Positions 18,896-42,376 of a stretch of 64,000 nucleotides of DNA are shown one piece after another. Every line of letters begins with the position of its first letter. Position 1 is the first letter of the stretch. The DNA is from an uncultured bacterium. GTDB taxonomy: Bacteria; Verrucomicrobiota; Verrucomicrobiia; Verrucomicrobiales; DEV007. The translations under genes and the position numbers were made by a program. The notes beneath the pieces are model-generated. The model was not told the DNA's origin and searched no databases. It saw nothing but the letters and a program-made list of their open reading frames with translations. Where the stretch lies: assembly GCA_963977015.1 (NCBI GenBank), contig CAXBMO010000005.1, positions 128,001-192,000 of the forward strand, given 5' to 3'.

Positions 18896-19609
18896 ATGCA
18901 GCCAACGAACGAAACGAAGCCGCGCGAACGGTGGACGCATCTGCCGAAACTGGCCGGCCTGCTCGGCATGTTGGTTCCGTTGCTGACGGTGGTTTTGCAC
19001 CCGGGCCTGCGCGCAGAAATGGTTGAGGGAATCCGGATTCTTTCGTCCGGCAACTTGAACGCGCTGCACGTTTGGGCGGCAGAGTTTGGCGTCTGGGCTC
19101 CTCTCGCGACGAGCGCTCTCATGATCGCGCAAGCGTTGGCCGCACCGATTCCCGCAGTTCTCGTCACCTGGACCAATGCGCTTCTCTTCGGCTGGTTTCC
19201 CGGTGGTTGCCTGTCGATCGTCTCCGCGACCGTGGCCGCTTCGATTTGCTACGGAATAGGGCGCATCTTCGGTCTGCCGCTCGCGAATCGATTCGTGCGT
19301 CCGGAGACATTGCAGCAATGGGAAAAATCCATCGACCGCTACGGCGCCAACGCCATCCTTCTCGCTCGCCTCATCCCCTTCGTCCCGTTCGATCCGATCA
19401 GCTACATCGCGGGCATCGTCCGCATGCGCTTCTGGCCATTTTTCCTCATGACGCTCCTCGGCCAAATCCCGGCCGGGTTCGCCTATTCGTATCTCGGTGA
19501 GCAAGTCACGCAACCGGCGCGATTGGTCGTGACGTCGATCTGCGTGGTCGTAGCTCTGGTCGTGATCGGCCTGACCGCGCGACGGATTTTGCAAGGACGA
19601 GAACCTTGA
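18896..19609 (+). CDS. TVP38/TMEM64 (DedA superfamily, YdjZ-like) membrane protein
   Basis: QALAAPIPA...NALLFG, ILLARLIPFVPFDPISYIAG, TLLGQIPA. Confidence 0.9.
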   Translation: MQPTNETKPRERWTHLPKLAGLLGMLVPLLTVVLHPGLRAEMVEGIRILSSGNLNALHVWAAEFGVWAPLATSALMIAQALAAPIPAVLVTWTNALLFGWFPGGCLSIVSATVAASICYGIGRIFGLPLANRFVRPETLQQWEKSIDRYGANAILLARLIPFVPFDPISYIAGIVRMRFWPFFLMTLLGQIPAGFAYSYLGEQVTQPARLVVTSICVVVALVVIGLTARRILQGREP

Positions 19610-19622
19610 GCCACGAAAACTC

Positions 19623-20393
19623 TCAACCTTCAATCCGGCCCATCATCAGGTTGGAGACAAAACTCACTTCATCTTCCACCTCTCCCGGCGCTGCCGTCTC
19701 GGAAACGACAGAGTCGAGCGCGCGTTTGAATTGGTCGCGGAAAGCCAGCATCTTCGCCTTCACGTTGTTTTCGTTCGTTCCCAGTTCCAGCGCGATTTCG
19801 CTGTATTTCACATGATCGCCGTCTCCCGCGCGGCCGCTCAGGTTTTGGCAGAGCAACTGAAATTCCTTCAGCTTGTCTTTCTTGCTGTAGCGCTGTGCCA
19901 ACATCCCCATCACCTGATTGATCGTCGCCTCCGCCCACTCTTTTTCGAAGATCTTGTCCGGTGACTGTTCATCGATTGCCGTATTGGCAAAACGCCCCTC
20001 GGCCCACTCAAAATCCATCGATACATGGGTTTGCGCCTTCGGCCCGCCCCGTTTCTGGGCCGACTCCTTGCGAAATTCCTTCTTTCGGAACCGGTCCAGC
20101 GCCACTTTCAGAAACGTCCGCAACCGACCGCGTTTGGGGTCCCACTGTTTGATCTGCTCCCGTTCCAGCAACTCGTTGACAATGAACGCCTGCACCAAAT
20201 CCGAGGCGTCGTCGTGCGTCTCTCTTTGTGCCCGCATAAAGGCATACATCGGATACCAGTAACGCTGAAAAAACTCCTCCAACGCCTGCTGAGAATCCAT
20301 CGGGTTATCGGAAAGAACCCGCTGGTAAAGACTCAGACTGGTTTCCGGGAACGGATTCGGGCTGCCTGCCATCGTGCTTTCTGACTCGCTCAT
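19623..20393 (-). CDS. ECF RNA polymerase sigma factor, PVC kinase-associated type
   Basis: FPETSLSL, ALEEFFQRYWYPMYAFMR, DASDLVQAF, DPKRGRLRTFL, AQKRGG, PDKIFEKEWA; region-4 HTH YSEIALELGTNENNVK. Confidence 0.9.
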   Translation of the reverse strand: MSESESTMAGSPNPFPETSLSLYQRVLSDNPMDSQQALEEFFQRYWYPMYAFMRAQRETHDDASDLVQAFIVNELLEREQIKQWDPKRGRLRTFLKVALDRFRKKEFRKESAQKRGGPKAQTHVSMDFEWAEGRFANTAIDEQSPDKIFEKEWAEATINQVMGMLAQRYSKKDKLKEFQLLCQNLSGRAGDGDHVKYSEIALELGTNENNVKAKMLAFRDQFKRALDSVVSETAAPGEVEDEVSFVSNLMMGRIEG

Positions 20394-20454
20394 CGCTTCA
20401 AAATGGCTCCATCTCCGGGAATTCTCCAGTGTTGAAAAAGATTCTTGGGAAAAA

Positions 20455-20485
20455 TCCTAACCTGCTGAGTCGATCCGGTAAGAAG
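20455..20485 (+). promoter_or_regulatory. Variant copy of the candidate ECF promoter motif upstream of the kinase
   Basis: TCCTAAC-N13-CCGGTAAGAAG; one base shorter spacing than the other four copies. Confidence 0.45.
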
Positions 20486-20610
20486 CGTGCAGGACACAAT
20501 CAACCTTACTTCAAAGTCAGAATCGCTGGATCTCGCCATTTCTTCATGAACACACACACCAAGAGTTCACCATTGACCGTCAACCGCCCAAGGCTAATCT
20601 GGTCTCTCCG

Positions 20611-23600
20611 ATGCTTGGGCAATCTACTCCCGTTTGCGAAAAGTGCGGCGCTCCGCTCTGGAACAATTCTCCCGTTCCTGTTTGCGGTCGGTGCCTGCTC
20701 GTGGCTGCCGTTGTCAAAACGCAACACTCTCGCCAGTCTCAAAGGGAAGGAGGCAGCATGAAGGATGGCGATGCGACCGAACCACATCCACGCTCCAAAA
20801 GTTCCTCCCTCGGAATCGAATTGCCGGATCGTGATGAAATCCAGAAGCTCTTTCCCGAGCTGGAGATTGGTGATCTGCTCGGCGCCGGAGGAATGGGCGC
20901 CGTTTTCAAAGCGCGGCAGCCTCGGCTCAAGCGGGATGTCGCGGTCAAGATCCTCTCCAAGCGATTGGCCAGCGATCCCGAGTTCATTGCCCGCTTCGAG
21001 CGCGAAGCCCAGGCCATGGCCAAGCTCGACCATCCCAACATCGTCACGATCTACGATTTCGGCGATCGCGAGGGCTATTACTACTTCATCATGGAATTTG
21101 TGGACGGCGGTGATCTCCATCAACTCATCGCAGCGAGCAAGCTTGACCCTGCCGCCGTGCTGGAACTGGTTCCGCAAATTTGTGGCGCAATTCAATTCGC
21201 CCACGAAGAAGGGATCACTCACCGTGACATCAAACCGGCCAACATCCTGCTCGACACCAAGGGCCGGGTGAAAATCGCGGATTTCGGTTTGGCCAAAATC
21301 CTCGCCGGAACCACCGACATCTCGTTGACGATGCCTGGCACCGCCATGGGAACGCCTTTTTACATGGCCCCGGAACAGTTGATCGACACGGAAAATGTCG
21401 ATCAGCGCGCCGATATCTATTCGCTCGGCGTGGTGCTCTATCAGATGTTCACCGGCGTGCTCCCCCAAGGCGATTTCGATCCCCCCTCAAAGACCTTGCC
21501 GGATATCGGTTCGTCCGTCGATAACGCGGTCATGCGAGCCTTGGCACAGGATCCGGCGCTCCGATTCGCCGAGGTGAAAGAGATGATGGAGGCGCTGGAA
21601 TTGGTGCGGGAAGAGCGCAAGAAGCGACGGTCGAAGAAGCACAAGTCGAGTCCTGGCAAAGATCCCAGTAAGCGCAAAAGCCTGATCCCATGGGTGGTTG
21701 GCACTCTGTTGGCAGTTTTCATTGTGGCTGCCATCAGGATCTGGATGTTTCCGAACAAGGCGGAGTCGCCAATGGCCGTTCATTCGTCTGCGGCGGATTT
21801 CAATCATATCGTTGCACCGTTGGTTCCGCAAACGCGGCCCGGCCCGCTTCGAGGGTTGTTGCTGACGTCCGAAGATGAAGTTCAGTCCATGGATCTTTCC
21901 GAGGTTTCGGAGTTCAACGACTTCATCCAGGTCCGGACAACGAATGCCGGTAATCCTCCAACCATTCTGGGTCTTCGCGCAAACGGGAAAGTGATCGGCA
22001 TCAATACGCCTGAAAACTGGGAAGACGGACTCGCGTTGCTCAATCAGGGACCTCCGATTCGATTTCTCGGGCGGAACGTCATGTCCATGCAACATCTCGT
22101 TGCGATCGACGAAACCGGGGTTGCTCGCCCCCTGCTGCCAAGCCACCCTGCCCATCAGGGATTTCCTGCAAATCCGGGTGCTGAAATTGCCGATGTGAGA
22201 ACCTTCACAGACCACAGCGCCATGTTGACGGTAGATGGGCGGGTGCTCTTGTGGGGGCCCGATTTTGTAGGTGAAAACAAGTCTTGGGATATGCCGCCGG
22301 ATACCTTTCGGACCGGTGTCGAGCAAATCCGGGTCACGGAAAACGCGATTTTTCTCCGGTATGCCAACGGCGACGTTAAAGGATGGGGAGAGACGGGCGA
22401 GATCTCATTGCCCCGGGCGATGCGTCACGACGTCAAAGCCATTTCCGTCAACGCTTTTTTGCTGAGGGCCTTGGATTCGGAGGGTCGAGTCTGGTCTACC
22501 TCGTCAGAATCGCCCAATCTCCTTGGAAATGGCGGAGAGTTCGTCGCCACTGGAGTTGCTGCTCTCAAGGATCAGCCCCTCGGGATGATCGTCTACAAGA
22601 AGGCGGATAGCCGCCGGTGGGAACTAACAAGTGGCAGTGGTCCAGAGCGATGGTACGGTCCGTTCGCCGCGGAGCTTGAAAGACTTGGTGACATCCCGGG
22701 GGAAGCCTTCAATGGTGGTGGACATACAACTTCCGAGACTCGCTTTCTGGTTTGGATCGAGCCGGCGGTGGCCGAGGCAAAATTAGAACCAGTTCTGCCC
22801 ACGATGAAGCCCGGCCGATTGCGGGCAATGGGGACGATCGGACTCGACGGACGGATCGTCCCCGCATCGGAGGGACTGCCGGATGTCGATGATATTGTCC
22901 AAATCCGGACGAGCAAAATCGGCGCAATGATCGCGTTGAGAGCCAATGGCAAGCTGGTCTCCAATCTTGAGCCTTTCTCGGAAATGATTGACGCTATCGC
23001 CAAATTCAATCGCGATCATACCGCCCGGCACCTGGGGTATATGTATTATTCCGCGCATGGGTTGGTAGCGATTGATGTCCTGGGTGTTCCCAGGCCTGTT
23101 TTTCCCGACCATCCCACCCATTCCAACTTTCCTCAGCCGGACGAACCCGTGGTTGATGTCATGGGCAGCAACTCAGGCGGAGTCATGCTCACAGAGAGTG
23201 GACGAGCGATTCCCTGGGGATTGTATTACACCCGGGAAGAGGATCGCTGGGATATGCCTCCCGATGACCTGTTGACGAATGTTGAAGAGGTCGCGCTCGG
23301 TAGCTACGCCTTTTTCGTCCGGAAGAAGAGCGGCGAGGTCGTCGGCTGGAATGGGAAACAGAAGATCCTTCCCCCGGAGGAAATGCGCAGCGGAATGCAA
23401 AAAATCGCCATGCATTTCGATAGCTTGGCTGCGATAGGACCTAAGGGCAGATTCTGGCGAACACACGGAGTTTTCCGCTACACGGAACTTTTCATCAAGG
23501 GTGAAATTGAGGCCACGAATATCACAAACAGCAATCATGGAGTGGGCCTTTTGCGAACCGGCACGGGAATCTGGCAACCCACTTTCGATGCAGACCGTCC

Positions 23601-24687
23601 GCTCATGTCTCCCTTGTTGGAAAAGGTCGCCACGCTTGAGGACTACCCGGAAGATGCGTTTGTTATGGGAGGAGACGATGGCTCTCAATCGCGGTTTCTC
23701 TTTTGGATCGAGCCGAAAACGGCGGAAGCAGCCACTCCACAGATCGACCTCCCGCCGGCCCTGGCCGCGATGAAACAGCACGGCGGCGCGCTCAGCGTTT
23801 GGAAGAGTCCCGGATGGGGCGACAAGCCTTACGACATCTCGCCGGCGGAAGGGATCGGTGATTTTCACGCATTGCTCGCGGTCAGTCATTCAGGCTGGGT
23901 CGCGGCTCGGCACCGTGGCCCCTCGGTTTCGTCGCTGCCTTGGTTTCATGATCTTGACGGCCTCGATTGGGCGAGCATGGAGAGTCCGACTTATGGCGGA
24001 ACACGGGACGGAACTGTCCTGGTGTCTCGTGGAGATGGAATTACCGGATTCCAAGCGGCACGCGAGGAGCTGACCGATCTGGTTGAAGCTGGACATTGGA
24101 TCTTGCGCTCGTCGACGGGAGAAATACGGCTCGTGGTCCCCGACCTCGTCACTCAGGCGCCCGGCTGGAAAACCATGCAACGCAAATTGAAAACCCTGTA
24201 TGGCGTCCGTGCGGTTTCCAATCAGGGAACTCGGAATGGAGGGGTGATCCTTTCGGATGGATCGCCATTGTGCTGGCTCTATCGAGAAGAGGAACCCTTT
24301 GTCGAACCTCCGGAAGTGGCACGCGATCTGGTCGAACTTCATGCCTGCGCGGGCGGATGGGTAGCGTTGCGCGAGGACGGACGAGTGATCGCTTGGAACT
24401 ATCACGGGCAAACGAACAGATCCCATCACCTGACACCTCCCGGTGACCTTCCGCCTGTTACGACTTTGCGTAGCAATAATGATCTGGTCGCCGCGCAAAC
24501 GGCAGATGGAAGTTGGCGAGCCTGGGGCGGCGAGCCCACCAATCCAGAGGGGCTGGATGACACGGAAGCGATTCTCCAATTTCTCAACCAAGAAATGGGG
24601 CTAGCAGTCGATTTGGGATTCTGTAACCCGGGCACTGGCGGGCGCGTGGTGATTTGGATTGAGCCGACGGGGCTTACACCTAAATAG
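20611..24687 (+). CDS. Membrane Hanks-type Ser/Thr receptor kinase: Zn-ribbon, kinase, TM, three extracytoplasmic RCC1/beta-propeller-like repeat modules
   Basis: CEKC...CGRC; LGAGGMGAV, VAVK, HRDIKPAN, DFGLAK, GTPFYMAPE, DIYSLG; TM LIPWVVGTLLAVFIVAAI; three modules ending RFLVWIEP, RFLFWIEP and RVVIWIEP. Confidence 0.93.
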   Translation: MLGQSTPVCEKCGAPLWNNSPVPVCGRCLLVAAVVKTQHSRQSQREGGSMKDGDATEPHPRSKSSSLGIELPDRDEIQKLFPELEIGDLLGAGGMGAVFKARQPRLKRDVAVKILSKRLASDPEFIARFEREAQAMAKLDHPNIVTIYDFGDREGYYYFIMEFVDGGDLHQLIAASKLDPAAVLELVPQICGAIQFAHEEGITHRDIKPANILLDTKGRVKIADFGLAKILAGTTDISLTMPGTAMGTPFYMAPEQLIDTENVDQRADIYSLGVVLYQMFTGVLPQGDFDPPSKTLPDIGSSVDNAVMRALAQDPALRFAEVKEMMEALELVREERKKRRSKKHKSSPGKDPSKRKSLIPWVVGTLLAVFIVAAIRIWMFPNKAESPMAVHSSAADFNHIVAPLVPQTRPGPLRGLLLTSEDEVQSMDLSEVSEFNDFIQVRTTNAGNPPTILGLRANGKVIGINTPENWEDGLALLNQGPPIRFLGRNVMSMQHLVAIDETGVARPLLPSHPAHQGFPANPGAEIADVRTFTDHSAMLTVDGRVLLWGPDFVGENKSWDMPPDTFRTGVEQIRVTENAIFLRYANGDVKGWGETGEISLPRAMRHDVKAISVNAFLLRALDSEGRVWSTSSESPNLLGNGGEFVATGVAALKDQPLGMIVYKKADSRRWELTSGSGPERWYGPFAAELERLGDIPGEAFNGGGHTTSETRFLVWIEPAVAEAKLEPVLPTMKPGRLRAMGTIGLDGRIVPASEGLPDVDDIVQIRTSKIGAMIALRANGKLVSNLEPFSEMIDAIAKFNRDHTARHLGYMYYSAHGLVAIDVLGVPRPVFPDHPTHSNFPQPDEPVVDVMGSNSGGVMLTESGRAIPWGLYYTREEDRWDMPPDDLLTNVEEVALGSYAFFVRKKSGEVVGWNGKQKILPPEEMRSGMQKIAMHFDSLAAIGPKGRFWRTHGVFRYTELFIKGEIEATNITNSNHGVGLLRTGTGIWQPTFDADRPLMSPLLEKVATLEDYPEDAFVMGGDDGSQSRFLFWIEPKTAEAATPQIDLPPALAAMKQHGGALSVWKSPGWGDKPYDISPAEGIGDFHALLAVSHSGWVAARHRGPSVSSLPWFHDLDGLDWASMESPTYGGTRDGTVLVSRGDGITGFQAAREELTDLVEAGHWILRSSTGEIRLVVPDLVTQAPGWKTMQRKLKTLYGVRAVSNQGTRNGGVILSDGSPLCWLYREEEPFVEPPEVARDLVELHACAGGWVALREDGRVIAWNYHGQTNRSHHLTPPGDLPPVTTLRSNNDLVAAQTADGSWRAWGGEPTNPEGLDDTEAILQFLNQEMGLAVDLGFCNPGTGGRVVIWIEPTGLTPK

Positions 24688-24832
24688 AGCCCGTCCCTTC
24701 TATATTGCGCTTCAATGTTAGCGCCTCTTCTATGTTGACTCGTCGTGCTTCACTCACCGCCGATCGGGTTCGTGGGACTGAGGTGGGAAATTCTTGACCG
24801 CACCATCTCCAAGCGTTTATCCATGAAGTGGA

Positions 24833-25573
24833 ATGGCAGACATCTTTCTCAGCTACAAAGGGACGGACTACGAAAAGGTCCGGGAAATCATCCAATTACT
24901 GGGCTCCCAACAGAACTGGAGCATCTGGTGGGACCGGGACATTGAGAAAGGGGAATTGTGGAGTGCTCGCATTCGTAAGGAACTTCGCGACGCCAAGTGC
25001 GTCGTGGTCGCCTGGAGCATTCGGTCCATCGATCCCATAAGCGGTAAGTGGGTTCTCGCCGAGGCAGACTATGGATTCAACAAGAACCGGCTCATTGGAG
25101 TCCGAATTGAACCGGTCGGCATCCCAGTTCCCTTTAATCAGATCCAATCCATCGACCTATTTGGGGACAAGGCCGCAGGTCGACGGGCTCTGATAAAAGC
25201 TGTTGGCGAGAAGCTGGCGAAGCGCTCGCCGGGAAAACAGAAGAAGGGCCAACTGAGATGGAAGGAACTCGTCCTCGAATGCAAGGCACTGGGCGTAGGA
25301 TTCAGCATCACCAAAAACACCTTGCGCGGTCGCCAAAGCCTTCTGATCGGTCGAGACAAAAGTTGTGACCTATGGGTGCCCTACGACGCGGTTTCTCGCG
25401 AGCACGCCCGAATCACGTTCGACAAGTACAAGGGCCCGTGCATCATTGATCTCGGATCGGCAAATGGCACCTATCTCGATCGAGGCAAGGTTGGCAAATC
25501 CCGACGACCATTGTTGAGAGCCCGACATCTGGAACTCGGGACCCTGACATTCACAGTAGAAGTTATCAACTGA
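24833..25573 (+). CDS. TIR domain-FHA domain fusion protein
   Basis: TIR: MADIFLSY...WWDRDIEKGELW...AKCVVVAWS...WVLAEA. FHA: LLIGRDKSCDL...VSREHARI...DLGSANGTYL. Confidence 0.92.
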   Translation: MADIFLSYKGTDYEKVREIIQLLGSQQNWSIWWDRDIEKGELWSARIRKELRDAKCVVVAWSIRSIDPISGKWVLAEADYGFNKNRLIGVRIEPVGIPVPFNQIQSIDLFGDKAAGRRALIKAVGEKLAKRSPGKQKKGQLRWKELVLECKALGVGFSITKNTLRGRQSLLIGRDKSCDLWVPYDAVSREHARITFDKYKGPCIIDLGSANGTYLDRGKVGKSRRPLLRARHLELGTLTFTVEVIN

Positions 25574-25673
25574 GCACTCGAAGACGGTTACGCTTTCGGA
25601 CTGCCTACGCTCGCCCTGCCTCTTGCTCGATTTCCATTGCCACTTCACCCTGATTCGCCTCTTAGCTTTCTGC

Positions 25674-25945
25674 ATCATGGGAAACGAACAAATTCCATCA
25701 CCTGACACCTCCCGGTGACCTGCCGCCTGTTTCGTCTCTGGGTAGCAATAGTGATCTGGTCGCCGCGCAAACCGCAGATGGAACCTGGCGAGCCCTCCTC
25801 CAAATCCGAGGAACCAGATGACACGGAAGCGATTATCCAATTTCTCAATCACGAAATGGATCCAGCAGTCGATTTGGGATTCTGTAACCCGGGCACCGGT
25901 GGGCACGTGGTGGTTTGGATCGAGCCGGCAGCTGTTGGGGAGTAG
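25674..25945 (+). pseudogene. Diverged duplicate of the last ~285 bp of the kinase gene (24401-24687)
   Basis: Long identical blocks (CCATCACCTGACACCTCCCGGTGACCT; GCAGTCGATTTGGGATTCTGTAACCCGGGCAC). Encodes DDTEAIIQFLNHEM...GFCNPGTGGHVVVWIEP with an internal deletion. Confidence 0.9.
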
Positions 25946-26011
25946 TTCTGACAAGGTGTTGGCGCGGCTTTAGACGGGAAAGTCCGGCTTGGAAAAAGAA
26001 ATCGAGAAAAT

Positions 26012-26045
26012 TTCTAATTCTCACGCCTCGGACCGGAAAGCAGGG
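26012..26045 (+). promoter_or_regulatory. Conserved bipartite motif, candidate ECF promoter (copy 1)
   Basis: TTCTAAT-N14-CCGGAAAGCAGG, 59 bp from CCGG to the ATG at 26092. Confidence 0.6.
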
Positions 26046-26091
26046 AGTGAAACCAATCCATCTCAATCTTCACACCCAATAAACCCAAAAA

Positions 26092-26490
26092 ATGAAAACG
26101 ACCAAATCGACCTTCACCGCTCTCATCATGGCCAGTTCGACCTTGCTCTGCCAATTCCTCAGTGCCCAGACAAGTGCGGATTATTTCAATCGGGGCAATG
26201 AAAAGGGAAGGCTTGGGGATTTTGAGGGAGCGATCTCGGACTTCACGCGAGCGATCCAACTCAATCCGAAGGCCCCTTACGCCTACCACAATCGGGGAGT
26301 GGCCAAGAAAGACTTTGGGGACGACAAGGGGGCAATCTCGGACTACTCGCGAGCAATCGAGCTCGACCCCAAGGATGCCAAAGCCTACTACTACCGGGGA
26401 AACGCCAAAACGAGCATTGGGGACACTCTGGGAGGAATGTTAGACTTCAACCAAGCGATCGCCCTAGCCCCGAAGATTGCGGGAGGTTGA
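26092..26490 (+). CDS. Secreted TPR-repeat protein (3 TPRs)
   Basis: Signal peptide; repeats of AYxNRG...GDxxGAISDxxRAIxLxP. Confidence 0.9.
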   Translation: MKTTKSTFTALIMASSTLLCQFLSAQTSADYFNRGNEKGRLGDFEGAISDFTRAIQLNPKAPYAYHNRGVAKKDFGDDKGAISDYSRAIELDPKDAKAYYYRGNAKTSIGDTLGGMLDFNQAIALAPKIAGG

Positions 26491-26622
26491 GAGGAACGGT
26501 TTCGAGCTTTGCACGATCGGTTGAAGGCGGGTTCTGGGGACGATCATGTAGTGGCCCCTGTGTGGCGAATTCCCCCGCGTTTGGGCGAGAAAACCTGGCT
26601 TGGGAAATAAATAGGAAGAAAT

Positions 26623-26656
26623 TTCTAACCTTCCCAACCCGAACCGGAAAGCAGGA
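26623..26656 (+). promoter_or_regulatory. Candidate ECF promoter motif (copy 2)
   Basis: TTCTAAC-N14-CCGGAAAGCAGG, 53 bp from CCGG to the ATG at 26697. Confidence 0.6.
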
Positions 26657-26696
26657 GGTGAACCCTATTTCAATCCTTCAACCTACTACCTGAACA

Positions 26697-27248
26697 ATGA
26701 ATCTGTTCGCTTTAATCGCAAACTCTGGAGGCTTTTTCTCCACCGTTGGTTCCATTCTCTTGATTGGCGCAGTTGTCATCGGGATGTGGTTCGCCTTCTT
26801 CGCCTCCGCCGAAGCCGGAGAACGGCTCGAACAACACCTGAACGGCACCCCTTCCGCGAAGGCGCTGAATCTGGTCGTCTACTTTTTCCTGCCCTGGCTC
26901 CTCGCGGCGACGTCGGTTTTACTTCTGTTCCAAATTAGCGATTGGATCCCCAAGGAACCCGACTCGTCCTTTCTTCAAAAGCTGAACTGGGCGTTGGCCA
27001 TAGCCAGCACGATTGGCTGGGCGTACGCCGCCATCGGCTTGGTAAAGTGGGATGTCTGCGGATGGGGAATGGCTCTCTTGCTCTATCCCGGCATGATCTT
27101 CGTTCCCGTCATCACCTTCAGCAACCTGCCGGAGGGATGGCAATTTCTGGCGCTGCCGATTCACACGACGCTCATCTTCGTGATCGGCGCCATCGGCTAC
27201 AACTCGAAAGCAAACCAGGAAATGCGTATCGCGATGAGCCTAGGGTAG
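26697..27248 (+). CDS. Hypothetical integral membrane protein (about 5 TM)
   Basis: 183 aa hydrophobic ORF directly downstream of motif copy 2. Confidence 0.75.
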   Translation: MNLFALIANSGGFFSTVGSILLIGAVVIGMWFAFFASAEAGERLEQHLNGTPSAKALNLVVYFFLPWLLAATSVLLLFQISDWIPKEPDSSFLQKLNWALAIASTIGWAYAAIGLVKWDVCGWGMALLLYPGMIFVPVITFSNLPEGWQFLALPIHTTLIFVIGAIGYNSKANQEMRIAMSLG

Positions 27249-27283
27249 GAACTCCCAGCCTTCCAATTCCAACGAAAAATATC

Positions 27284-27712
27284 ATGATAAATGACCTCAC
27301 CTCCATCCTCACCGACTATTTCACCGTAGACACCATCCTGTCCTTCGCCATCCTCTTCCTCCCCGCTTTCATTGCTTGGTCTGTGATTGCCTGGTTCGAG
27401 CAACGCTCTTTTATCTTTGGCCGTTCCGAGGGTTTTCCTTGGTCACAGATCGCCTTCTCTGCGGTAGCAACGGCCGTGTTTATCGGAGGCCCCACTTTCT
27501 TTGGCTCCGTAATCCTCACACACGCTTGGAACGACGATTGGCGAGTGCATGGTTGGCAGTTTTCGTTTCTCCTCCTCGCAATCGGAATTACAGCCTACAT
27601 TTTTACCGTCCGTGGGAGCGAACCGCTCATTCTGACCGCACTCCCCTTGGGGTTATATCTTCTGCTGGTTTTCACAGCAACCTCCTTCTGGATCTCATCG
27701 GCTTTACGATAA
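27284..27712 (+). CDS. Hypothetical integral membrane protein (about 4 TM)
   Basis: ORF from MINDLTSILT, 35 bp after the previous stop codon. Confidence 0.72.
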   Translation: MINDLTSILTDYFTVDTILSFAILFLPAFIAWSVIAWFEQRSFIFGRSEGFPWSQIAFSAVATAVFIGGPTFFGSVILTHAWNDDWRVHGWQFSFLLLAIGITAYIFTVRGSEPLILTALPLGLYLLLVFTATSFWISSALR

Positions 27713-27811
27713 CTGCCAGGAAAAATCCGCGAAATTTCAGCCTTATCGTGCCAGCCCTTTCTCGGCGTTCGGTTCAGCTGATTCCCTTTCGCCAAAAAAC
27801 GAATCGCAATA

Positions 27812-27845
27812 TTCTAACCTTCCCGCCCCAGACCGGAAAGAAGGT
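27812..27845 (+). promoter_or_regulatory. Candidate ECF promoter motif (copy 3)
   Basis: TTCTAAC-N14-CCGGAAAGAAGG, 51 bp from CCGG to the ATG at 27884. Confidence 0.6.
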
Positions 27846-27883
27846 GAGAACCGATTAGTCTTCACACCAAGCTAATGATCCAA

Positions 27884-28549
27884 ATGAAAACCAAATACAC
27901 GATCCTTATTACGTTCACCTTCACCTTCGCCGCCTTAATCGCCCCGTTTGCCAACGCCCAGACATCTGCGAGGGAATACCAAAATCGCGGAGTGGAAAAA
28001 ACCAGGAATGGCGACCTTCGGGGGGCAATTGGGGATCTCGATCGAGCCATCCAAATCGATCCAAAACATGCGGACGCGTATGTCAATCGGGGCATAATCA
28101 AAAGTATTCTTGAAGACTACAAGGGAGCAATCTCGGACTACGAACACGCCTTGAGGATTGACCCGAATCTTGCCGAACCGGTCTACAACAATCGAGGAAA
28201 TGCCAGGAGGAAACTTGGAGATAACCAGGGAGCGATCGTGGATCTCAATCGAGTGCTTAACATCAACCCAAAACACGCCAGCGCATACCTAAATCGAGGT
28301 ATTGCGAGGCACTCCATGGGCGACAACGAGGGTGCCTACGCGGATTTCAGCCGCGCGATCCAGATCAATCCAAAGCTTGTGGACGCAACTTACAATCGAG
28401 CCATTCTCAGATACAATTCAGGTGACTACGAAGGCGCATTGATTGACGCCTCCAGGGTCATCGAGATTGCTCCAAATCATTCAAACGCACAGAACGTTCG
28501 CAAATTCGCCCGGGAAAAGATGAAAAGACAAACTCTCTTGGATCAATAG
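27884..28549 (+). CDS. Secreted TPR-repeat protein (about 5 TPRs), paralogue of 26092-26490
   Basis: MKTKYTIL...NA-QTSA signal matching MKTTKSTF...SA-QTSA; AYxNRG TPR repeats. Confidence 0.9.
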   Translation: MKTKYTILITFTFTFAALIAPFANAQTSAREYQNRGVEKTRNGDLRGAIGDLDRAIQIDPKHADAYVNRGIIKSILEDYKGAISDYEHALRIDPNLAEPVYNNRGNARRKLGDNQGAIVDLNRVLNINPKHASAYLNRGIARHSMGDNEGAYADFSRAIQINPKLVDATYNRAILRYNSGDYEGALIDASRVIEIAPNHSNAQNVRKFAREKMKRQTLLDQ

Positions 28550-28737
28550 AACAGCCAACAACGGACATCCGGAAATCCTTATTGTTTCATAATCAGTAGC
28601 CATCCGGTTTTGTCAATCTCGCTGCGAAGCCCGTCTGGGCGCGAAACGGTCTGGATGTCCACATCGGTCGCCGTATTCCGCCCACCATACGAAGCAAAGC
28701 TGGTCTGACCAATATTCCCAAAGAAACGAAATCGTTT

Positions 28738-28771
28738 TTCTACCCCTGGCAGGCGATTTCGGAAAGCAGGG
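28738..28771 (+). promoter_or_regulatory. Candidate ECF promoter motif (copy 4)
   Basis: TTCTACC-N14-TCGGAAAGCAGG followed by GAGTGAA as in copy 1. Confidence 0.5.
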
Positions 28772-28968
28772 AGTGAAGGCAATCGATTTGCCTGAAACCG
28801 AAGATACAAGGACGGCGCGAGGACTTCCCAACTTCACCACCTTTCGCGCCCGAATCCTCTTCCACTTCGGTGGGCTCTATCATTATCCCGCATCCTGAAT
28901 CTCACAACAAATCCTCAAGCGCCAATTTGATTTTTGCCGGATTTCCGATTCATTCGGGCTCCCAATTT

Positions 28969-31900
28969 ATGAATATTACCAGATCGTCGGGTTTTCGGCT
29001 TATTATCCTCTGTTTTTCTGCCGTTGTCGGTTCTGCTTTTTTGATCAATGCGCAGACTCCCGAAGCGCCAAAATCAAAACCGCTCAAAGCGTTGCTCGTT
29101 GCCGGGGGGTGCTGTCATGACTACGCCGGCCAACACGAAGTTCTTTTCAAAGGAATTCAGGAACGTGCCAATGTGCAGGTCGACGTCTGGTGGACCGATG
29201 ACAAATCAGTCAACCCGCCACTGCCACTTTATGACAATCCTGATTGGGCAAAAGGCTATGATGTGATCATTCACGACGAATGTGCCGCCGGAAATCGCGA
29301 CCTGAAAGTTCTGGATAACATTCTGGAAGCGCACAAAACGATTCCATCGATTCACCTCCACTGCGCGATGCACAGCTTTCGCGGAAAAACCGACAAGTGG
29401 TTCAAACATCTCGGAATTCAGTCTTCAAGCCACGGGCCTCAGGAGCCGATTGACATCGAGTTCATCGACAAAAAGCATCCCATTGTTGAGACTCTGGAGG
29501 ATTGGACAACGATTAATGAGGAGCTCTACAACAATGTGAATGTTTTTGATGCGCAGCCCCTCGCGATGGGCACGCAGAAATACACCAGAAAAGGTGAGGC
29601 AAAGGAAGACGCGGCGATCGTTGTTTGGGTGAACGAAAAGCAGGGTGCGCGGAGCTTTTCAACCACGCTGGGCCACAACACGGAAACGGTTCAGGACGGG
29701 CGTTATCTGGATCTGGTGACTCGCGGATTGCTCTGGTCGATGGACCAATTGAACGCAGATTATCTGGGGAAAGCCTTCACCGGTGAGAACAAGGTTACGT
29801 TTCTGCCGAAAGTCGACGCCCCAAAACCGGAGCCGAAAGCGGCCATGGGAGCTGCGCCGAAAGACGCCACCCTGGCGAAAGTCACCGCGAGCACCGAGGA
29901 AACCGGAAAGAACAATTTTGCCTGGCGCGCTATTGATGGCGACAAAAATACCCGCTGGTGTGCCGGAAACGGGAACAAACCGCAGTGGCTTCAATTGGAA
30001 TTTGAGAAGCAGCAAACGCTCTCCGGCGCAAAGATTGCCTGGGAAAGCGGTGGCACGGCCTACCAATACAAAATCGAAGGTTCCGCAGACGGAAAATCAT
30101 GGAACGTGCTGACGGACGCTGCTGACAACAAAACAAACGGTGACTCTGAAAGCACGTTCTCTGCAAAAGCGGTTCGTTTTGTAAAAGTCACCTGCACCGG
30201 CACAACCAATCCGGGCAACTGGGCCAGCATCCGGGAATTCACCTTGAAAGGCGAAGGCATCAAATCGCTCTACCCGAAGCTTGACGAAAAACAGAAAGAG
30301 ACTGCGATAAAGGCTGAGAAAGCTGAAAGTGATCCTTATGCGAAAGCGGGAAACATTCCGCCGAAAATCGTAGCGCTGACTGAGAAAGAGGAAAAGGACA
30401 TCCTCAGCAACGTCAAAGTTCCGGAAGGTTTCGACGTTTCAGTTTTCTCGGATTGGCGCAGTGCAAATTATCCTGTTTATGTCGCAGCCGCCCCGAACGG
30501 CGACCTTTATGTTTCCAGTGACGGCAATGGCTCGCTGGGCCGGAATGCGGGTCGTGGTCGCGTTCTTCGTCTGCGTGACACCGATCATGACGGAACCGCT
30601 GACGAGGTCACTGAATTTGTCAAAGACGTCGATTCTCCACGCGGATTGATCTGGGATCAGGACCGGCTTTACCTGCTGCATCCGCCGCACATTTCAGTTT
30701 ATTTTGATAAAGACGGCGACGGTGTCGCCGAAGATTCCAAGCGTCTTATTGAAGGCATTGCTTTCGGATTTGCAGATCGTCCGGCGGATCACACCACCAA
30801 CGGACTTGATATGGGAATTGATGGCTGGATTTACATCGCGGGCGGTGATTTCGGTTTCATGAAGGCAAAAGGAACTGATGGCACCGAACTGCAGCATCGC
30901 GGCGGTGGCGTGATTCGTTTCCGCCCCGACGGCTCCGGTTTGGAAATATTCGCAACCGGAACCCGGAACATCCTCGGAACTCCGATCAGCCCACTGCTCG
31001 ACATTTTCGCCCGCGACAACACCAACGACGGTGGCGGCTGGGACGTGCGGTTTCATCATTTCACCGGTCTGGAAGACCATGGTTACCCCCGCCTTTACAA
31101 AAATTTCGGTGAAGAACACATCCAGCCGCTCGCAGATTACGGTGGCGGGTCGGGATGTGGTTCCGTTTACATTTCAGAACCCGGTTTCCCGGCAGCCTGG
31201 AACAACGCGCCGTTCACTTGCGACTGGGGAACCGGTGCTCTGTGGCAACACTCCGTTCAGCGAAAAGGCGCCACCTTTGAAGAAACGAAAGCTCCTGAGC
31301 CTTTCATTAAAATGACCCGCCCCACCGACGCGGATGTCGACGGAATGAGCGCCGTTTATCAGGCAAGCTGGCGTGGGCCGGCGACGTTCAAGTGGGCCGG
31401 GCCGGAGGCCGGTTACATTGTGAAAGTGACGCCGAAGGATTTTAAACCCGAGCCCCTTCCCGATTTCAAAAAGATGAGCAATGCGGAACTCGTAGCGGCA
31501 CTGGATTCACCAAGCCGGATCCGGACAATGGCGGCACAGCGCGCACTGCTACGACGGGACCTTCAAGAGGAAACCACAGAAGGCCTCCTCGCTCTGGCTC
31601 AGAACCCCGAAAAGCCGCTCGAAGCCCGCGTCGCCGCGGTCTATGCGATTGCCCTGTCTGAAGAAAGTGCCGCTGCTCTCAGCGCCCTCATCGAAATCGC
31701 AAAAACAGACGTGGCCATTGCCCCTTTCGCGACCCGCGCACTGGGTGATTTGAAATTCGCCAATGGAGATATTCCAAAAGCGGCTCAGGATCTTGTTGCC
31801 GGCGGATTCTCATCCGGCGACCCGCGGACCGCGACGGAGGCAATCATTTCTGCGGCCCGCCTGGGGATGAGTTCTGCAGCCGACGGAATCGCAAACCTGC

Positions 31901-33534
31901 TCGGCAGTGATGACCCGCAAATCAGCCACGTCGCATTTCGCGCGCTTGCAAAACTCGGCGCCAGCGAAGCCGCCCTCGCAAAGCTCGATTCTGACACCCA
32001 CGGCAAACATGCCGCGTTTGCCCTTATGCGGATGCACGATCCCGCCGTCGTCGACAACCTGCTTTCACGGCTTTCGTCTGAGAAAAATCCGACCGTTCGT
32101 GAGCGACTCCTTTCGATTCTGGCACGACTCGCCCAGCAGGAAGCTGAATGGACCGGCGACAGCTGGGGAACGCGTCCCGACACACGCGGACCGTATTACC
32201 AGCTCGCAGACTGGTCGGAGACCGAAAAAATCCTGGCAGCCCTCAAGTCCGCACTTGAATCCGGCACGCCGGATGAAGCGGCTTTCATTGTGAAAGAAAT
32301 GAGCCGCAACCGGATACAATCCAACGATGCGCTCAACAGCATTCTCTCCCTCGCGAAGAAAAATCCAAAGGTCGTTCCGGATGCAGTCACCCAGTTGAGC
32401 ACCGCCGACTCTATTCCGGCAGAGGGGATTGATATTTTACTGCGAGTGCTCAAATCAGATGGCTCCGAATTCGGATTTTCATCCATGGCGGAAGCAGTCA
32501 CGGTTCTCGCAAAAACCGACAACCAAGAAGTGGTTGATACGTCACTCGCAGCCTTTGAAAAGCTTCAGAAGAATGTCCACGCCGCTCAGGCAGCCCAGAC
32601 CGAAGTCTCCAAAATTGAAGACGAAGTGAAGAAGAAATCCGAGCTGAAGTATGCGAGAGGACGCGTCAACGATGCCAGAAAAATGCTGGAAACGGCGACC
32701 ACTGGATTTTTGAAATCACCCAAACTGGAGAACCATCACCTCGCCATCGAGCACATTGCCGCCGAAAAGCCGGATTCCACTGAAGGGTTCTGGGCAAACG
32801 CGGCCCTTCTTGAGCTTGCTTCACGCAAAGACGGAAGCCCTGAATCCCGCGAGCTTTCGCAGAAGGCGGTCGATGTTGCATGGCAAAACCCAAAACAGAA
32901 GGTCGCATTGATCAAAGCCGCCTCGACAACGAAGAACCGCTCGCTGGATGAGCGAATTCAGATCGCGCTCAATTCACCGGACAAAGCCGTGAGCGATGCC
33001 GCTAAAAACGCTGCCAAGAGCTTGAAAATCCAGCCCAAGGGAGCCGACAAAACCCCGAAAATCTCGACGCTGGACCCGGCCAAAGCACTCGCCGAGGTCA
33101 TCAAACACAAAGGTGATGTTGCCCTCGGGGAATCGGTTTTCAGCCGAGCATCCTGTGTCGCCTGTCACACCACTAGTCAGCAGCAGGCTCAGAAAGGGCC
33201 TTACCTCGGCAACATTTTTGAGACCTACAAACGCCCTGAACTGGCGGAAGCCATTCTTGATCCGAATAAAACCATCGCTCAGGGATTTGCGACCAACTTG
33301 ATCGTTCTCAAAGACGGCAACACCCAGATGATGGGCTTCGTCACCAACGAGCAGGCGGATCAGGTAACCGTTCGCGATATTGCGTCAAAGGAACACGTCT
33401 TTAAAAAAGCTGACATCGACAAACGCGAAGAAATGCCCATGAGCATGATGCCTCCAGGCTTGATGATGAATTTCACGATTCACGAATTCGCAAGTCTGCT
33501 CGACTACCTCGAACACCTTTCGAAGAAGAAATAG
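28969..33534 (+). CDS. PVC-type heme-binding CxxCH protein (ThuA-like, F5/8 discoidin, dehydrogenase-like beta-propeller, HEAT repeats, cytochrome c)
   Basis: AGGCCHDY...TTLGHN (ThuA); AIDGDKNTRW...QWLQLEF (discoidin); DHTTNGLDMGIDGWIY, GTRN; CVACH...GPYL...SMMPPGL. Confidence 0.9.
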   Translation: MNITRSSGFRLIILCFSAVVGSAFLINAQTPEAPKSKPLKALLVAGGCCHDYAGQHEVLFKGIQERANVQVDVWWTDDKSVNPPLPLYDNPDWAKGYDVIIHDECAAGNRDLKVLDNILEAHKTIPSIHLHCAMHSFRGKTDKWFKHLGIQSSSHGPQEPIDIEFIDKKHPIVETLEDWTTINEELYNNVNVFDAQPLAMGTQKYTRKGEAKEDAAIVVWVNEKQGARSFSTTLGHNTETVQDGRYLDLVTRGLLWSMDQLNADYLGKAFTGENKVTFLPKVDAPKPEPKAAMGAAPKDATLAKVTASTEETGKNNFAWRAIDGDKNTRWCAGNGNKPQWLQLEFEKQQTLSGAKIAWESGGTAYQYKIEGSADGKSWNVLTDAADNKTNGDSESTFSAKAVRFVKVTCTGTTNPGNWASIREFTLKGEGIKSLYPKLDEKQKETAIKAEKAESDPYAKAGNIPPKIVALTEKEEKDILSNVKVPEGFDVSVFSDWRSANYPVYVAAAPNGDLYVSSDGNGSLGRNAGRGRVLRLRDTDHDGTADEVTEFVKDVDSPRGLIWDQDRLYLLHPPHISVYFDKDGDGVAEDSKRLIEGIAFGFADRPADHTTNGLDMGIDGWIYIAGGDFGFMKAKGTDGTELQHRGGGVIRFRPDGSGLEIFATGTRNILGTPISPLLDIFARDNTNDGGGWDVRFHHFTGLEDHGYPRLYKNFGEEHIQPLADYGGGSGCGSVYISEPGFPAAWNNAPFTCDWGTGALWQHSVQRKGATFEETKAPEPFIKMTRPTDADVDGMSAVYQASWRGPATFKWAGPEAGYIVKVTPKDFKPEPLPDFKKMSNAELVAALDSPSRIRTMAAQRALLRRDLQEETTEGLLALAQNPEKPLEARVAAVYAIALSEESAAALSALIEIAKTDVAIAPFATRALGDLKFANGDIPKAAQDLVAGGFSSGDPRTATEAIISAARLGMSSAADGIANLLGSDDPQISHVAFRALAKLGASEAALAKLDSDTHGKHAAFALMRMHDPAVVDNLLSRLSSEKNPTVRERLLSILARLAQQEAEWTGDSWGTRPDTRGPYYQLADWSETEKILAALKSALESGTPDEAAFIVKEMSRNRIQSNDALNSILSLAKKNPKVVPDAVTQLSTADSIPAEGIDILLRVLKSDGSEFGFSSMAEAVTVLAKTDNQEVVDTSLAAFEKLQKNVHAAQAAQTEVSKIEDEVKKKSELKYARGRVNDARKMLETATTGFLKSPKLENHHLAIEHIAAEKPDSTEGFWANAALLELASRKDGSPESRELSQKAVDVAWQNPKQKVALIKAASTTKNRSLDERIQIALNSPDKAVSDAAKNAAKSLKIQPKGADKTPKISTLDPAKALAEVIKHKGDVALGESVFSRASCVACHTTSQQQAQKGPYLGNIFETYKRPELAEAILDPNKTIAQGFATNLIVLKDGNTQMMGFVTNEQADQVTVRDIASKEHVFKKADIDKREEMPMSMMPPGLMMNFTIHEFASLLDYLEHLSKKK

Positions 33535-34574: not shown

Positions 34575-38234
<3,660 letters not shown>

Positions 38235-39160: not shown

Positions 39161-39326
39161 CGTAATCTTTTTTCCACAAAATCTGCCATTTTTAACCATT
39201 TTTCTGCGGAAATAAGGATTTTTCCGCAATCACGGTCTTGCGGGTGCCCTAATGATGTCGTAATCATTTTTCTTCGCACATCGCCATTTTGAACGATTTT
39301 TCCATAGAAATAGAGATTTTTCCATG
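39161..39326 (+). repeat. Tandem ~68 bp direct repeat (98 bp period) with internal palindromes, overlapping the Fic start codon
   Basis: 39161-39228 and 39259-39326 share CGTAATC...GCCATTTT.AAC.ATTTTTC...GAAATA..GATTTTTCC. Confidence 0.75.
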
Positions 39327-40808
39327 AAACCGCTCGGTTACACATGGCTGATTCCTCATTTCCAGCTCAAAACCCGCCCCCTGCGGCACAGCTCGTTCAT
39401 TGGAACCCGGCGAGCCCTCAAAGAGCGAGCGGATGGCTCGGTGGAGGAGCTTTACGTGAAGCGTTACGATCCGGGAAACGGGCCGCTTGATCACTTGGTC
39501 TTCGCCCTGAAATACGATGGGCTGGATCTCGACATCCTGCGCAAGGTCTTCGGGCAGATTTCCCCAAAGGAAGTGGCTGAATTTGTGGCAAGGACTCCAA
39601 CCGGAAAGTTTGCCCGACAGATCGGTTTCTGGTTCGAAATGTTGACCGGCCAGGAGGTTCCGCTCAACGAGAAACTGATCGGGAACTACACCCCACTGCT
39701 CGATCCCAAACGCTATGTGGTGGCGTCCAAGCCGGTTCGGAACGCCCGGTGGCGCATCGCGAACAATGCCATCGGGGACCAGCGCTTCATGCCCGTGATT
39801 CGGCGAACGGAGGCGATCCGCGCCATCGAGGAAACCGACTGGAAAGGGATCATCTCGGAAGCCGTCCGCCCGTTCCCCGAAGACGTGCTCCGCCGCGCCC
39901 TGTCCTATCTCTATTTCAAGGAAACCAAATCCTCATTCGCGATCGAACGCGAAGAGCCCGGTTCCGGAAGAACCGAGAGATTCGTGACGTTGCTCCACCG
40001 CGCGGGAAGCGAAGACCATCCGCTTAGCGAAGACACCCTGACCCATCTCCAGAATGCCATCCTGGACGAGCGCTATCACGAGAAAGGTTATCGGACGAGC
40101 CAGAACTACGTCGGCGAAACCACGGTCAACTTCCGGGAAATCATCCACTTGATCGGGAGTCCGCCAGTCCTCGTTCGCGATGTGATGGAGGGGCTGGAAG
40201 GTTACTTTGCCGCGAGCCGGAGTGTTCACCCGATCCTGCGGGCAGCGGCAATCTCGTTCCCGTTTGTCTTCATTCACCCGTTCGAGGACGGCAACGGGCG
40301 CATCCATCGCTACCTCATCCACGACGTCATGGCGAGGGGCGGGATTGGAGGCGAAGGACTGATCCTTCCCGTCTCGGCCGAGATCCTGGCCGACATGAAG
40401 GCTTACGACACCTGTCTGGAACGGTTCTCGAAGCCGTTGCTCTCCGTCGCCGAATACGAACTCAACACCAGGCAGGAGATGACCGTCGAGAACCCATCCG
40501 AGATCGAGGGATTCTACCGCTATCCCGACGTGACCCCGCAGGCCGAATATCTGGCGAACATGGTGAGCCAGGCGATCACGAAGAGCCTTCCCGAGGAGAT
40601 TGGCTTTCTTGAAAAACTCGACCGCGCCCGTCAGGCAATGAGAGAGATCGTGGACATGCCGGACCGGAAACGGGAATCTCTGCTCATGAGGCTCCACCGC
40701 AACAAGGGCAAAATCGCCAGGAGACGACGTGAAGGCGAATTCAAGGAACTGACGGACGAAGAAGTGGAGCAGATTGAGGAGGCATTTCTGGAGGCCTTTG
40801 AGAATTGA
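39324..40808 (+). CDS. Fic family protein (adenylyltransferase motif intact)
   Basis: HPFEDGNGRIHR matches HxFx(D/E)GNGRxxR; KETKSSFAIERE is an inhibitory-helix-like SxxxE motif. Confidence 0.94.
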   Translation: MKPLGYTWLIPHFQLKTRPLRHSSFIGTRRALKERADGSVEELYVKRYDPGNGPLDHLVFALKYDGLDLDILRKVFGQISPKEVAEFVARTPTGKFARQIGFWFEMLTGQEVPLNEKLIGNYTPLLDPKRYVVASKPVRNARWRIANNAIGDQRFMPVIRRTEAIRAIEETDWKGIISEAVRPFPEDVLRRALSYLYFKETKSSFAIEREEPGSGRTERFVTLLHRAGSEDHPLSEDTLTHLQNAILDERYHEKGYRTSQNYVGETTVNFREIIHLIGSPPVLVRDVMEGLEGYFAASRSVHPILRAAAISFPFVFIHPFEDGNGRIHRYLIHDVMARGGIGGEGLILPVSAEILADMKAYDTCLERFSKPLLSVAEYELNTRQEMTVENPSEIEGFYRYPDVTPQAEYLANMVSQAITKSLPEEIGFLEKLDRARQAMREIVDMPDRKRESLLMRLHRNKGKIARRRREGEFKELTDEEVEQIEEAFLEAFEN

Positions 40809-41833: not shown

Positions 41834-42376
41834 ATGAGCAGTAAAGCAAAGAAGGAAGATGGAGTGATACAGTGGTCAGTTTTAATCATCCTAGTAGCAG
41901 TCGTGATGGCCTTATGGTTGCTCACAATTTGGTTGGTTTGCGGCAATGAGATCCCCGGTAAGGGAGCATTCGGTGACGCCTTTGGTGCTACCAATACCCT
42001 TTTCTCCGGACTCGCGGCCGCTCTCTTCTTCTTCGCAATTTTTATGCAGCGCCAAGATCTCGCCTTCACAAAGAAAATGCTGGCGGACAGCGCCGAAGCT
42101 CAACAACAAAGCGCCGATTCGCACACGGAGTCGCTGAAGGAACTAAAGAAACAGAATGCACACATGCTGCAACAAAACGCGGTCATGCGAACACAAAACC
42201 GTCTCGCAAAACTCCAAGCCGAAATCGACATTGTTTCTTCTTTGTCGGAAAACGTAGATTCGATTTCCGCTGACGGGTTGCCAGATGGGTTTAAACGAAA
42301 TCCTGGAGCGCTCAAGCGGGCTTTGTTCCAGCGTCTTTACCAACTTAAATCTAACGTCGAAAATCTTGATGCCTAA
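41834..42376 (+). CDS. Hypothetical 2-TM plus coiled-coil protein (N-terminus like putative abortive-infection membrane proteins)
   Basis: TM, GAFGDAFGATNTLFSGLAAA TM, then MQRQDL and a Gln-rich coiled coil. Confidence 0.7.
   Translation: MSSKAKKEDGVIQWSVLIILVAVVMALWLLTIWLVCGNEIPGKGAFGDAFGATNTLFSGLAAALFFFAIFMQRQDLAFTKKMLADSAEAQQQSADSHTESLKELKKQNAHMLQQNAVMRTQNRLAKLQAEIDIVSSLSENVDSISADGLPDGFKRNPGALKRALFQRLYQLKSNVENLDA

Follow-up and report, generated by a model that had tools for sequence, protein, structure and literature searches.

A conserved sigma factor–receptor kinase pair with a predicted promoter motif and a probably later-inserted TIR-FHA gene in a verrucomicrobial genome

The stretch of DNA analysed here, hereafter the window, comprises 64,000 nucleotides (C5:128001-192000) of a 6.9-Mb, 95%-complete genome (G000) from an uncultured member of the Verrucomicrobiales. 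It encodes an extracytoplasmic function (ECF)-like sigma factor, a receptor Hanks-type Ser/Thr kinase transcribed away from it, a protein joining a TIR to an FHA domain (TIR-FHA), two secreted tetratricopeptide repeat (TPR) proteins, two membrane proteins and a large multidomain protein. We read this locus as having two layers, an old sigma–kinase regulon and a TIR-FHA gene inserted into it later, and give this reading a probability of roughly 60%. A preliminary description of the same DNA had proposed a self-contained signalling and immunity locus, in which one kinase would drive both a transcriptional and a TIR output. Open reading frame (ORF) listing combined with Pfam and NCBIfam scans places each gene of that description where it had been put.

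The sigma gene (256 residues; ORF listing and domain scans) lies on the minus strand at 19623-20393, and the kinase gene (1358 residues; Pkinase match and active-site motifs) on the plus strand at 20611-24687, as do all features below unless stated otherwise. The TIR-FHA gene (246 residues; TIR_2 and FHA matches) occupies 24833-25573, and the end of the kinase gene is repeated at 25679-25945, as DNA repeat comparison shows, in a decayed form with a shifted frame. Then follow TPR1 (132 residues; 26092-26490), recognized by domain scan and signal peptide; mem1 (183 residues; 26697-27248), a membrane protein assigned to no family by ORF listing and domain scans; mem2 (142 residues; 27284-27712), also a membrane protein; and TPR2, a TPR1 paralogue of 224 residues counted from the first ATG (27875-28549). 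The last gene, beyond the coordinates of the preliminary description, encodes a 1554-residue protein with ThuA, F5_F8_type_C, DUF7133, HEAT and cytochrome c matches in Pfam (28870-33534). The two secreted TPR proteins are paralogous, as had been claimed: they are 45% identical, signal peptides included. Mem1 and mem2 are hydrophobic and have no detectable relationship to each other.

The preliminary description was right that the ECF-like sigma gene is divergent from that of a transmembrane Hanks kinase and that this kinase has three extracytoplasmic modules. The Pkinase match covers kinase residues 86–286 (E 3e-53) and the catalytic motifs are complete, with GAGGMG at 91, VAVK at 110, HRDIKPAN at 204, DFG at 224 and APE at 253. 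The N-terminus carries a Zn-ribbon-like CxxC..CxxC arrangement, and a single transmembrane helix lies at approximately residues 357–381. The extracytoplasmic part is built from three modules of ~317 residues, each closing in WIEP (715, 1032 and 1349; period 951 nt), with pairwise identities of 34, 28 and 16%; their RCC1-like matches in Pfam are weak and sub-threshold. Of 133 other genomes in the family, five contain orthologues of the sigma factor at E ≤ 1e-55 (40–56% identity). All seven orthologous loci from these five have a kinase belonging to the family of the window kinase beside the sigma gene. The two genes are divergent in six of the seven and co-directional in L198. Because it is kept in 7/7 orthologous loci, the sigma–kinase pairing is regarded as the old, conserved core of the locus. 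Within the source genome there are seven sigma paralogues, of which six have a kinase domain no more than 8 kb away.

The sigma factor matches no Pfam family at E ≤ 0.01, and its alignment to NCBIfam TIGR02937 (sigma70-ECF) spans residues 37–224 with an E-value of 5e-8 and 32.7 bits, the cut-off being 42.9. Its remoter homologues contain PF04542 (Sigma70_r2), PF07638 (Sigma70_ECF) or PF08281 (Sigma70_r4_2), and one sigma homologue bears the label Limisphaerales. The sigma2.2 motif reads D62-A-S64-D65 in place of DAED, with both aspartates retained. Its third position is serine in six, alanine in four and glutamate in one of the 12 closest homologues (P0179-P0190), with one unlocated; among six translated orthologous loci, it is serine in five and glutamate in one. 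A serine phospho-switch at sigma2.2 is possible from these sequences, and it would not be general for the group.

In gene arrangement, the pair resembles the ECF43 pairs EcfP-PknT of Vibrio parahaemolyticus and EcfK-PknS of Xanthomonas citri: an ECF-type sigma adjoins a transmembrane Hanks kinase, and the pairing is kept across genomes. In the known ECF43 systems, according to PMC8999054 and PMC13147305, the kinase phosphorylates sigma2.2 and/or the linker, which leads to RNA polymerase binding; the members covered there lack DAED and have the consensus QTTA with a phospho-Thr. In contrast, the window sigma has D-A-S-D with both aspartates and not QTTA, the sequence mark of ECF43; judged by its sequence, it is not a typical ECF43. 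Other kinase-linked groups named in PMC7826278 are ECF59-62, 217, 267 and 283. ECF43-type systems have no co-encoded anti-sigma factor; here, Pfam recognizes no anti-sigma domain in the products of the neighbouring genes, in a search that small, divergent anti-sigma proteins could escape.

The surroundings of the orthologous pairs vary. In L191:11053-12850 (G005:C12), a small secreted protein and a 403-residue Sel1-repeat protein are encoded between motif and kinase, on the kinase strand; from this locus, TPR-like partners may be a recurring theme of the sigma–kinase family. PcfJ-like proteins are encoded a few kilobases from the sigma gene in two loci (L192:483-2060 and L201:8042-9346). At L192:3034-3585 (G017:C57), a gene for a 183-residue cpYpsA protein (circularly permuted YpsA, SLOG; E 4e-51) overlaps the stop of the orthologous kinase by 22 nt and so occupies the position that TIR-FHA holds in the window, a single case. 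The SLOG fold class is related to that of TIR. The idea of cpYpsA as a recurring kinase neighbour was dropped: the source genome's sole copy (C1:163 kb) lies far from any kinase.

A bipartite, promoter-like motif, TTCTAACC-N13-CCGGAAAG, has copies in front of the kinase gene, both TPR genes, the mem1-mem2 pair and the large gene. Repeat finding identified the element that the regions 5' of four of these units (TPR1, mem1, TPR2 and the large gene) have in common. The first three copies (26012-26044, 26623-26655 and 27812-27844) fit the strict pattern TTCTAA[CT]-N14-20-CGGAAAG. This pattern has four matches in the 6.9-Mb genome, three at the locus and the fourth inside an ORF on contig C42; a 34-nt consensus allowing up to three mismatches has two matches in the window and 0.00 in shuffles. 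The copy before the large gene, TTCTACCC..TCGGAAAG (28738-28770), is weaker and was found by repeat finding, a loose pattern and the all-site matrix. The preliminary description had assigned a common upstream motif to the TPR and membrane genes, which stands for TPR1, mem1 and TPR2 but not for mem2, which starts 36 nt past mem1 and has no motif of its own; the two membrane genes are probably co-transcribed. It had overlooked a related site, TCCTAACC-N12-CCGGTAAG (20455-20482), in the sigma–kinase intergenic region, upstream of the kinase and facing it.

The motif recurs outside this genome. The blocks TC(T/A)CACC and (C/T)(C/G)GGTAA(G/T) lie 5' of the kinase operon in four of the seven orthologous loci (L191, L192, L198 and L201). 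A matrix built solely from these four foreign sites was run over 127,936 window positions and ranked the kinase site at 20455 first, the TPR2 copy at 27812 third and the mem1 copy at 26623 fourth; the second-ranked match (24041-24068, minus strand) lies inside the kinase gene and is probably due to chance. Genome-wide, 179 of 13.8 million positions score at least as high as the third-ranked site, which corresponds to ~0.2 expected occurrences in the 8.4-kb locus stretch, where four are found. The spacing between the two conserved blocks is 12–14 nt. Two blocks so spaced resemble the -35/-10 layout of ECF promoters. Rfam has no match at E ≤ 1 in region 19000-29500. Scans for sigma-70 promoters and terminators stay at chance level.

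From this pattern of sequences, we infer that the element is the cognate promoter of the sigma factor and that the kinase operon is autoregulated. It is plausible that the sigma, kinase and TPR/membrane genes belong to one regulatory unit. The large ThuA/DUF7133/cytochrome c gene is a probable member; the orthologous locus L201 has a related DUF7133-HEAT-cytochrome c gene at a distance of 2 kb from its kinase, and a TPR gene is also nearby.

TIR-FHA was correctly described as a domain fusion behind the kinase, with Pfam matches to TIR_2 (E 2e-17) and FHA (E 2e-14). The TIR domain spans residues 1–131 and is joined by a short flexible linker to the FHA domain (residues 144–246); there is no signal peptide. 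A structural model computed from a 71-sequence alignment has a pLDDT (predicted local distance difference test) of 93.8. An earlier model from four sequences, with a poor TIR part and a pLDDT of 73.6, was discarded. The TIR model superposes on the TIR domain of MAL with Z 17.0 (root-mean-square deviation 1.9, 127 aligned), on that of SARM1 with Z 15.2 (2.2, 122 aligned) and on ThsB with Z 13.5. The FHA model matches Rv1747, GarA, EmbR and DgcB at Z ~14 (14.3 to 3poa and 6hbz; Foldseek E ~1e-7). The family profile finds its best PDB sequence matches in the TIR-1/SARM1 and AbTIR NADases. In this alignment Glu77 stands opposite the glutamate of WVHKE in TIR-1/SARM1, which we take to be the catalytic residue, making Glu77 the candidate catalytic glutamate; it is invariant in 62/62 family sequences. 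In the FHA domain, the conserved residues of phosphothreonine (pThr) binding are present as G-R (G173, R174), S-R-x-H (S188, R189, H191) and N-G-T (N211, G212, T213). With fold, Glu77 and FHA residues intact, TIR-FHA is plausibly a cytoplasmic, pThr-binding, NADase-competent protein and is probably active. A predicted complex of kinase residues 1–356 with TIR-FHA scored 0.00, a value that carries no weight either way.

Several lines of evidence set TIR-FHA apart from the core. The decayed copy behind it, which the preliminary description had overlooked, corresponds to the last ~89 codons of the kinase (~267 bp). It is 90% and 85% identical in DNA sequence to 24407-24687, over 116 and 131 nt, and an 11-bp deletion shifts its frame. 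TIR-FHA is thereby bracketed by direct repeats, the kinase 3' end and its decayed copy, from which we conclude that a rearrangement put it between kinase and regulon. Four marine metagenome runs of one study yielded only short identical pieces of the contig and no joints across the direct repeats, too little to bear on variants that lack TIR-FHA. No motif precedes TIR-FHA, the best upstream score ranking 168th. The gene is absent from all seven orthologous sigma–kinase loci, and 40 relatives contain no full-length TIR-FHA, only four partial domain matches. In its own genome it is single-copy, the two other TIR regions that it matches as a query being 30–34% identical.

The best relatives of TIR-FHA are alphaproteobacterial TIR proteins (41–51% identity). 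Full-length homologues number three among 5.8 billion clusters (45–51% identity), to which an exhaustive search added P0030. The one independent context examined is L029, in an alphaproteobacterial metagenome-assembled genome (G041) whose protein falls in the P0004 cluster. Here, TIR-FHA is surrounded by genes for RecO, a solute-binding protein, an alcohol dehydrogenase-like protein, DUF4139 and DnaK; 10 kb to either side there is neither a kinase nor a sigma gene, and of the five Hanks kinases in that genome the closest is 174 kb away. Among 401 genomes of the same alphaproteobacterial class, G041 alone has a full-length match, and a metagenome scan returned only the source organism's own contig (L109). 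Across 160 loci of the TIR family, a kinase is found in three, one of which is the own contig, and an FHA domain in two. As far as these data reach, the expected co-occurrence of TIR-FHA with a kinase elsewhere was not seen. Because of the scar, the lack of a motif, the absence from relatives and orthologous loci and the kinase-free L029, TIR-FHA is best regarded as a later addition. TIR-FHA has a DedA/VTT gene in its vicinity here as well as in L029; co-transfer of the two was considered and rejected, the DedA/VTT proteins being only 25% identical.

In the mechanism that we favour, the kinase would sense an extracytoplasmic signal through its three RCC1-like modules and activate the sigma factor, most likely by phosphorylation. 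Sigma would then drive the TTCTAACC-N13-CCGGAAAG promoters of the kinase itself and of TPR1, mem1-mem2, TPR2 and the large gene, and the output would be a small envelope-directed regulon. TIR-FHA would have been inserted between kinase and regulon in a rearrangement that left the decayed duplicate of the kinase 3' end. Its FHA domain would bind a pThr mark, whose writer may be the adjacent kinase or any of ~25 other Hanks kinases; that the adjacent kinase writes it seems doubtful to us. Sigma could control TIR-FHA, which lacks a copy of the motif, only by way of read-through from the kinase promoter.

A number of observations weigh against this two-layer reading. The score of the sigma factor lies below the curated ECF thresholds of both Pfam and NCBIfam. 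The motif is not evident in three of the seven orthologous loci (L199, L200 and L202). Homologues of the TPR/membrane genes are absent from six of the seven, only L201 having TPR and DUF7133 relatives, and the regulon must therefore be lineage-specific. The sequence is carried by six DNA datasets from three studies, all marine metagenomes, and by no listed RNA run, so that promoter function and co-transcription stand as predictions. The composition of TIR-FHA is normal, with a GC content of 0.54 overall and 0.64 at third codon positions against 0.57 and 0.63 for the kinase; the insertion is therefore either not very recent or derived from a compositionally similar donor. The comparison of independent TIR-FHA contexts comprises one locus, L029. 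Finally, TIR-FHA may instead have come in with the end of a kinase gene attached, a history that could leave the same scar and would point to an older kinase/TIR-FHA linkage.

The alternative that survives best, which we hold possible at somewhat less than even odds, treats TIR-FHA as a pure passenger: a chance arrival with its own expression that reads pThr marks made by other kinases or borne by itself, the adjacent kinase being irrelevant. Its adjacency to a kinase is unremarkable by permutation: with 34 TIR_2 matches counted as 32 genes (three same-frame matches merged) and 26 kinase places, 33% of 5000 random placements bring one or more TIRs to within 1 kb of a kinase, the observed number being two (P = 0.064). 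Given so many TIRs and kinases in the genome, adjacency alone is weak evidence. The same abundance, with 15 FHA matches and a kinase/FHA island at C9:184-200 kb, offers other sources of the mark; the alphaproteobacterial orthologue does without a neighbouring kinase, and no sigma-type motif stands 5' of TIR-FHA. Against a pure passenger, however, the shared orientation, the short gap and the lack of a convincing terminator or sigma-70-like promoter in it favour some read-through from the kinase, whose reading frame the insertion left intact. The second TIR/kinase adjacency in this genome is at L207:2322-6307 (G000:C8:52321-56306), where the gene for a 480-residue TIR-FGE-sulfatase protein is divergent from that of a 602-residue Hanks kinase, ~0.8 kb apart.

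The integrated circuit with two outputs, close to what the preliminary description had in mind, appears unlikely. Here, the kinase would activate sigma and also recruit and cluster TIR-FHA by pThr, leading to NAD+ cleavage and to anti-phage or stress immunity. Of its two halves, the transcriptional one is plausible, given the 7/7 pairing and the motif, but the TIR half fails to appear in any orthologous locus. In its molecular form, a pThr-gated TIR enzyme, TIR-FHA would be co-transcribed, dock by its FHA domain on the autophosphorylated kinase and be clustered and switched on, a sequence of events to which we give low odds. The activation loop of the kinase contains a T-T-D-I stretch. In favour of such a circuit, TIR-FHA is read in the direction of the kinase and starts 145 nt past its stop, with terminators at chance level; the functional residues of both its domains are intact; TIR and FHA are fused in several architectures, so that pThr-to-TIR logic is probably general; the scar fits a donor that already carried kinase 3' end and TIR-FHA together; and the SLOG gene of L192, a single case, overlaps the stop of the kinase there. 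These points are set against the absence of TIR-FHA from the 7 orthologous loci and, at full length, from the 40 relatives, the 174-kb distance to the nearest kinase in the L029 genome, the scarcity of kinases in TIR-family loci (3/160, one being the own organism's) and the 33% frequency of chance adjacency. Were it true, one extracytoplasmic signal would evoke both a transcriptional and an NAD-derived response in a bacterial receptor-kinase-to-TIR pathway, and TIR domains would have a new trigger, extending to the widespread TIR+FHA class.

The immunity part of that circuit found no backing. PADLOC-DB does not recognize TIR-FHA (best match E 0.012, not significant) and assigns the kinase to generic kinase models only. 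Pfam scans reveal no ThsA/SIR2 partner at the locus. The flanks consist of housekeeping genes, with no defence-island or mobile-element context; no phage copies of TIR-FHA were found, and plasmids returned two partial TIR matches only.

Quite improbable, finally, is the proposal that the upstream element is no promoter and marks no sigma regulon, being a leftover of local duplication, a small repeat or an RNA leader: the likeness upstream of TPR1 and mem1 spans 89 nt at 71%, which exceeds the length of a promoter, the two TPR genes are paralogues and the four-site matrix is weak genome-wide (179 matches at the same score), but the element also stands before the kinase, the large gene and mem1, none of them paralogous, recurs 5' of the kinase operon in 4/7 orthologous loci, keeps its block spacing of 12–14 nt and has no counterpart in Rfam.

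TIR-FHA belongs to a wider set of proteins. Both domains occur in 14 of 178 collected proteins, four of the 14 being the query set. Among the best 150 representatives are membrane proteins of 428–460 residues with the order FHA-TIR-DUF805 (P0050, P0053, P0055, P0135 and P0145), a second, unrelated joining of FHA to TIR, as well as forms with multiple FHA domains and a TIR. Two FHA-TIR-DUF805 copies bear only the source name 'YhaH (DUF805 family)'. The ESM Atlas holds at least eight clusters (51–500 members) with FHA and TIR_2, from Bacillota, Pseudomonadota and Chloroflexota. Because such combinations recur in many architectures, the control of TIR domains by pThr probably exists as a general principle. 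A full-text search of the open literature found no description of a classical FHA-TIR fusion or of a pThr-triggered TIR. A 2026 preprint describes TIR-ParA systems whose FHA domains are permuted and lack the phosphopeptide-binding histidine, a different domain.

Comparison with characterized systems places TIR-FHA between two groups. With Bdellovibrio DgcB (FHA-GGDEF), mycobacterial GarA and corynebacterial OdhI, and EmbR, it shares the classical FHA fold and the pThr-binding residues. In these proteins, FHA couples the mark of a Hanks kinase to an output domain. TIR-FHA differs from them in having TIR as the output domain. With the TIR NADases SARM1/TIR-1, AbTIR, Thoeris ThsB and TIR-STING, it shares the TIR fold and the aligned catalytic-type glutamate, but it lacks a ThsA/SIR2/SLOG partner, STING and the ARM/SAM domains. 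The preliminary description had drawn a likeness to a eukaryotic receptor-kinase/TIR circuit. For animal TLR-MyD88-IRAK and plant receptor-kinase/TIR signalling, this likeness is one of analogy only (membrane receptor, kinase, TIR); there is no homology of circuits, nor does the TIR gene accompany the kinase in a conserved way.

On the two-layer reading, the locus adds a verrucomicrobial (Limisphaerales-like) member to the kinase-linked sigma factors. Few members of these groups come, as this one does, with a concrete, testable predicted promoter motif and a local regulon of four units. TIR-FHA, for its part, points to an uncharacterised and fairly widespread TIR+FHA class. If FHA gates TIR, Ser/Thr phosphorylation would be a new input to bacterial TIR signalling, an idea for which this locus is convenient and not privileged, its kinase being a candidate writer of the mark and nothing more.

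The genes flanking the locus are housekeeping genes (Nuo51-like, DeoC, GlnA-like, RibA, DedA, WecG and LigA), among them the DedA/VTT gene at 18896-19609 (plus strand; ORF listing and domain scan). The ORF of the NAD-dependent DNA ligase (35040-38234, plus strand; 1064 residues) has its adenylation domain only from residue 463, and so has either a long N-terminal extension or an in-frame ORF upstream. Further on, and 14–17 kb 3' of TIR-FHA with housekeeping genes in between, the plus strand encodes a 494-residue protein with a Fic/DOC domain (39324-40808) and a 253-residue Abi_alpha protein (42285-43046). Signalling domains are greatly expanded genome-wide, as the counts of TIR_2, FHA and Hanks kinase matches given above indicate (34, 15 and ~26 places), and frames with TIR_2 reach 2010 residues, one example being the combination of TIR and WD40 in a 1170-residue ORF on contig C16.

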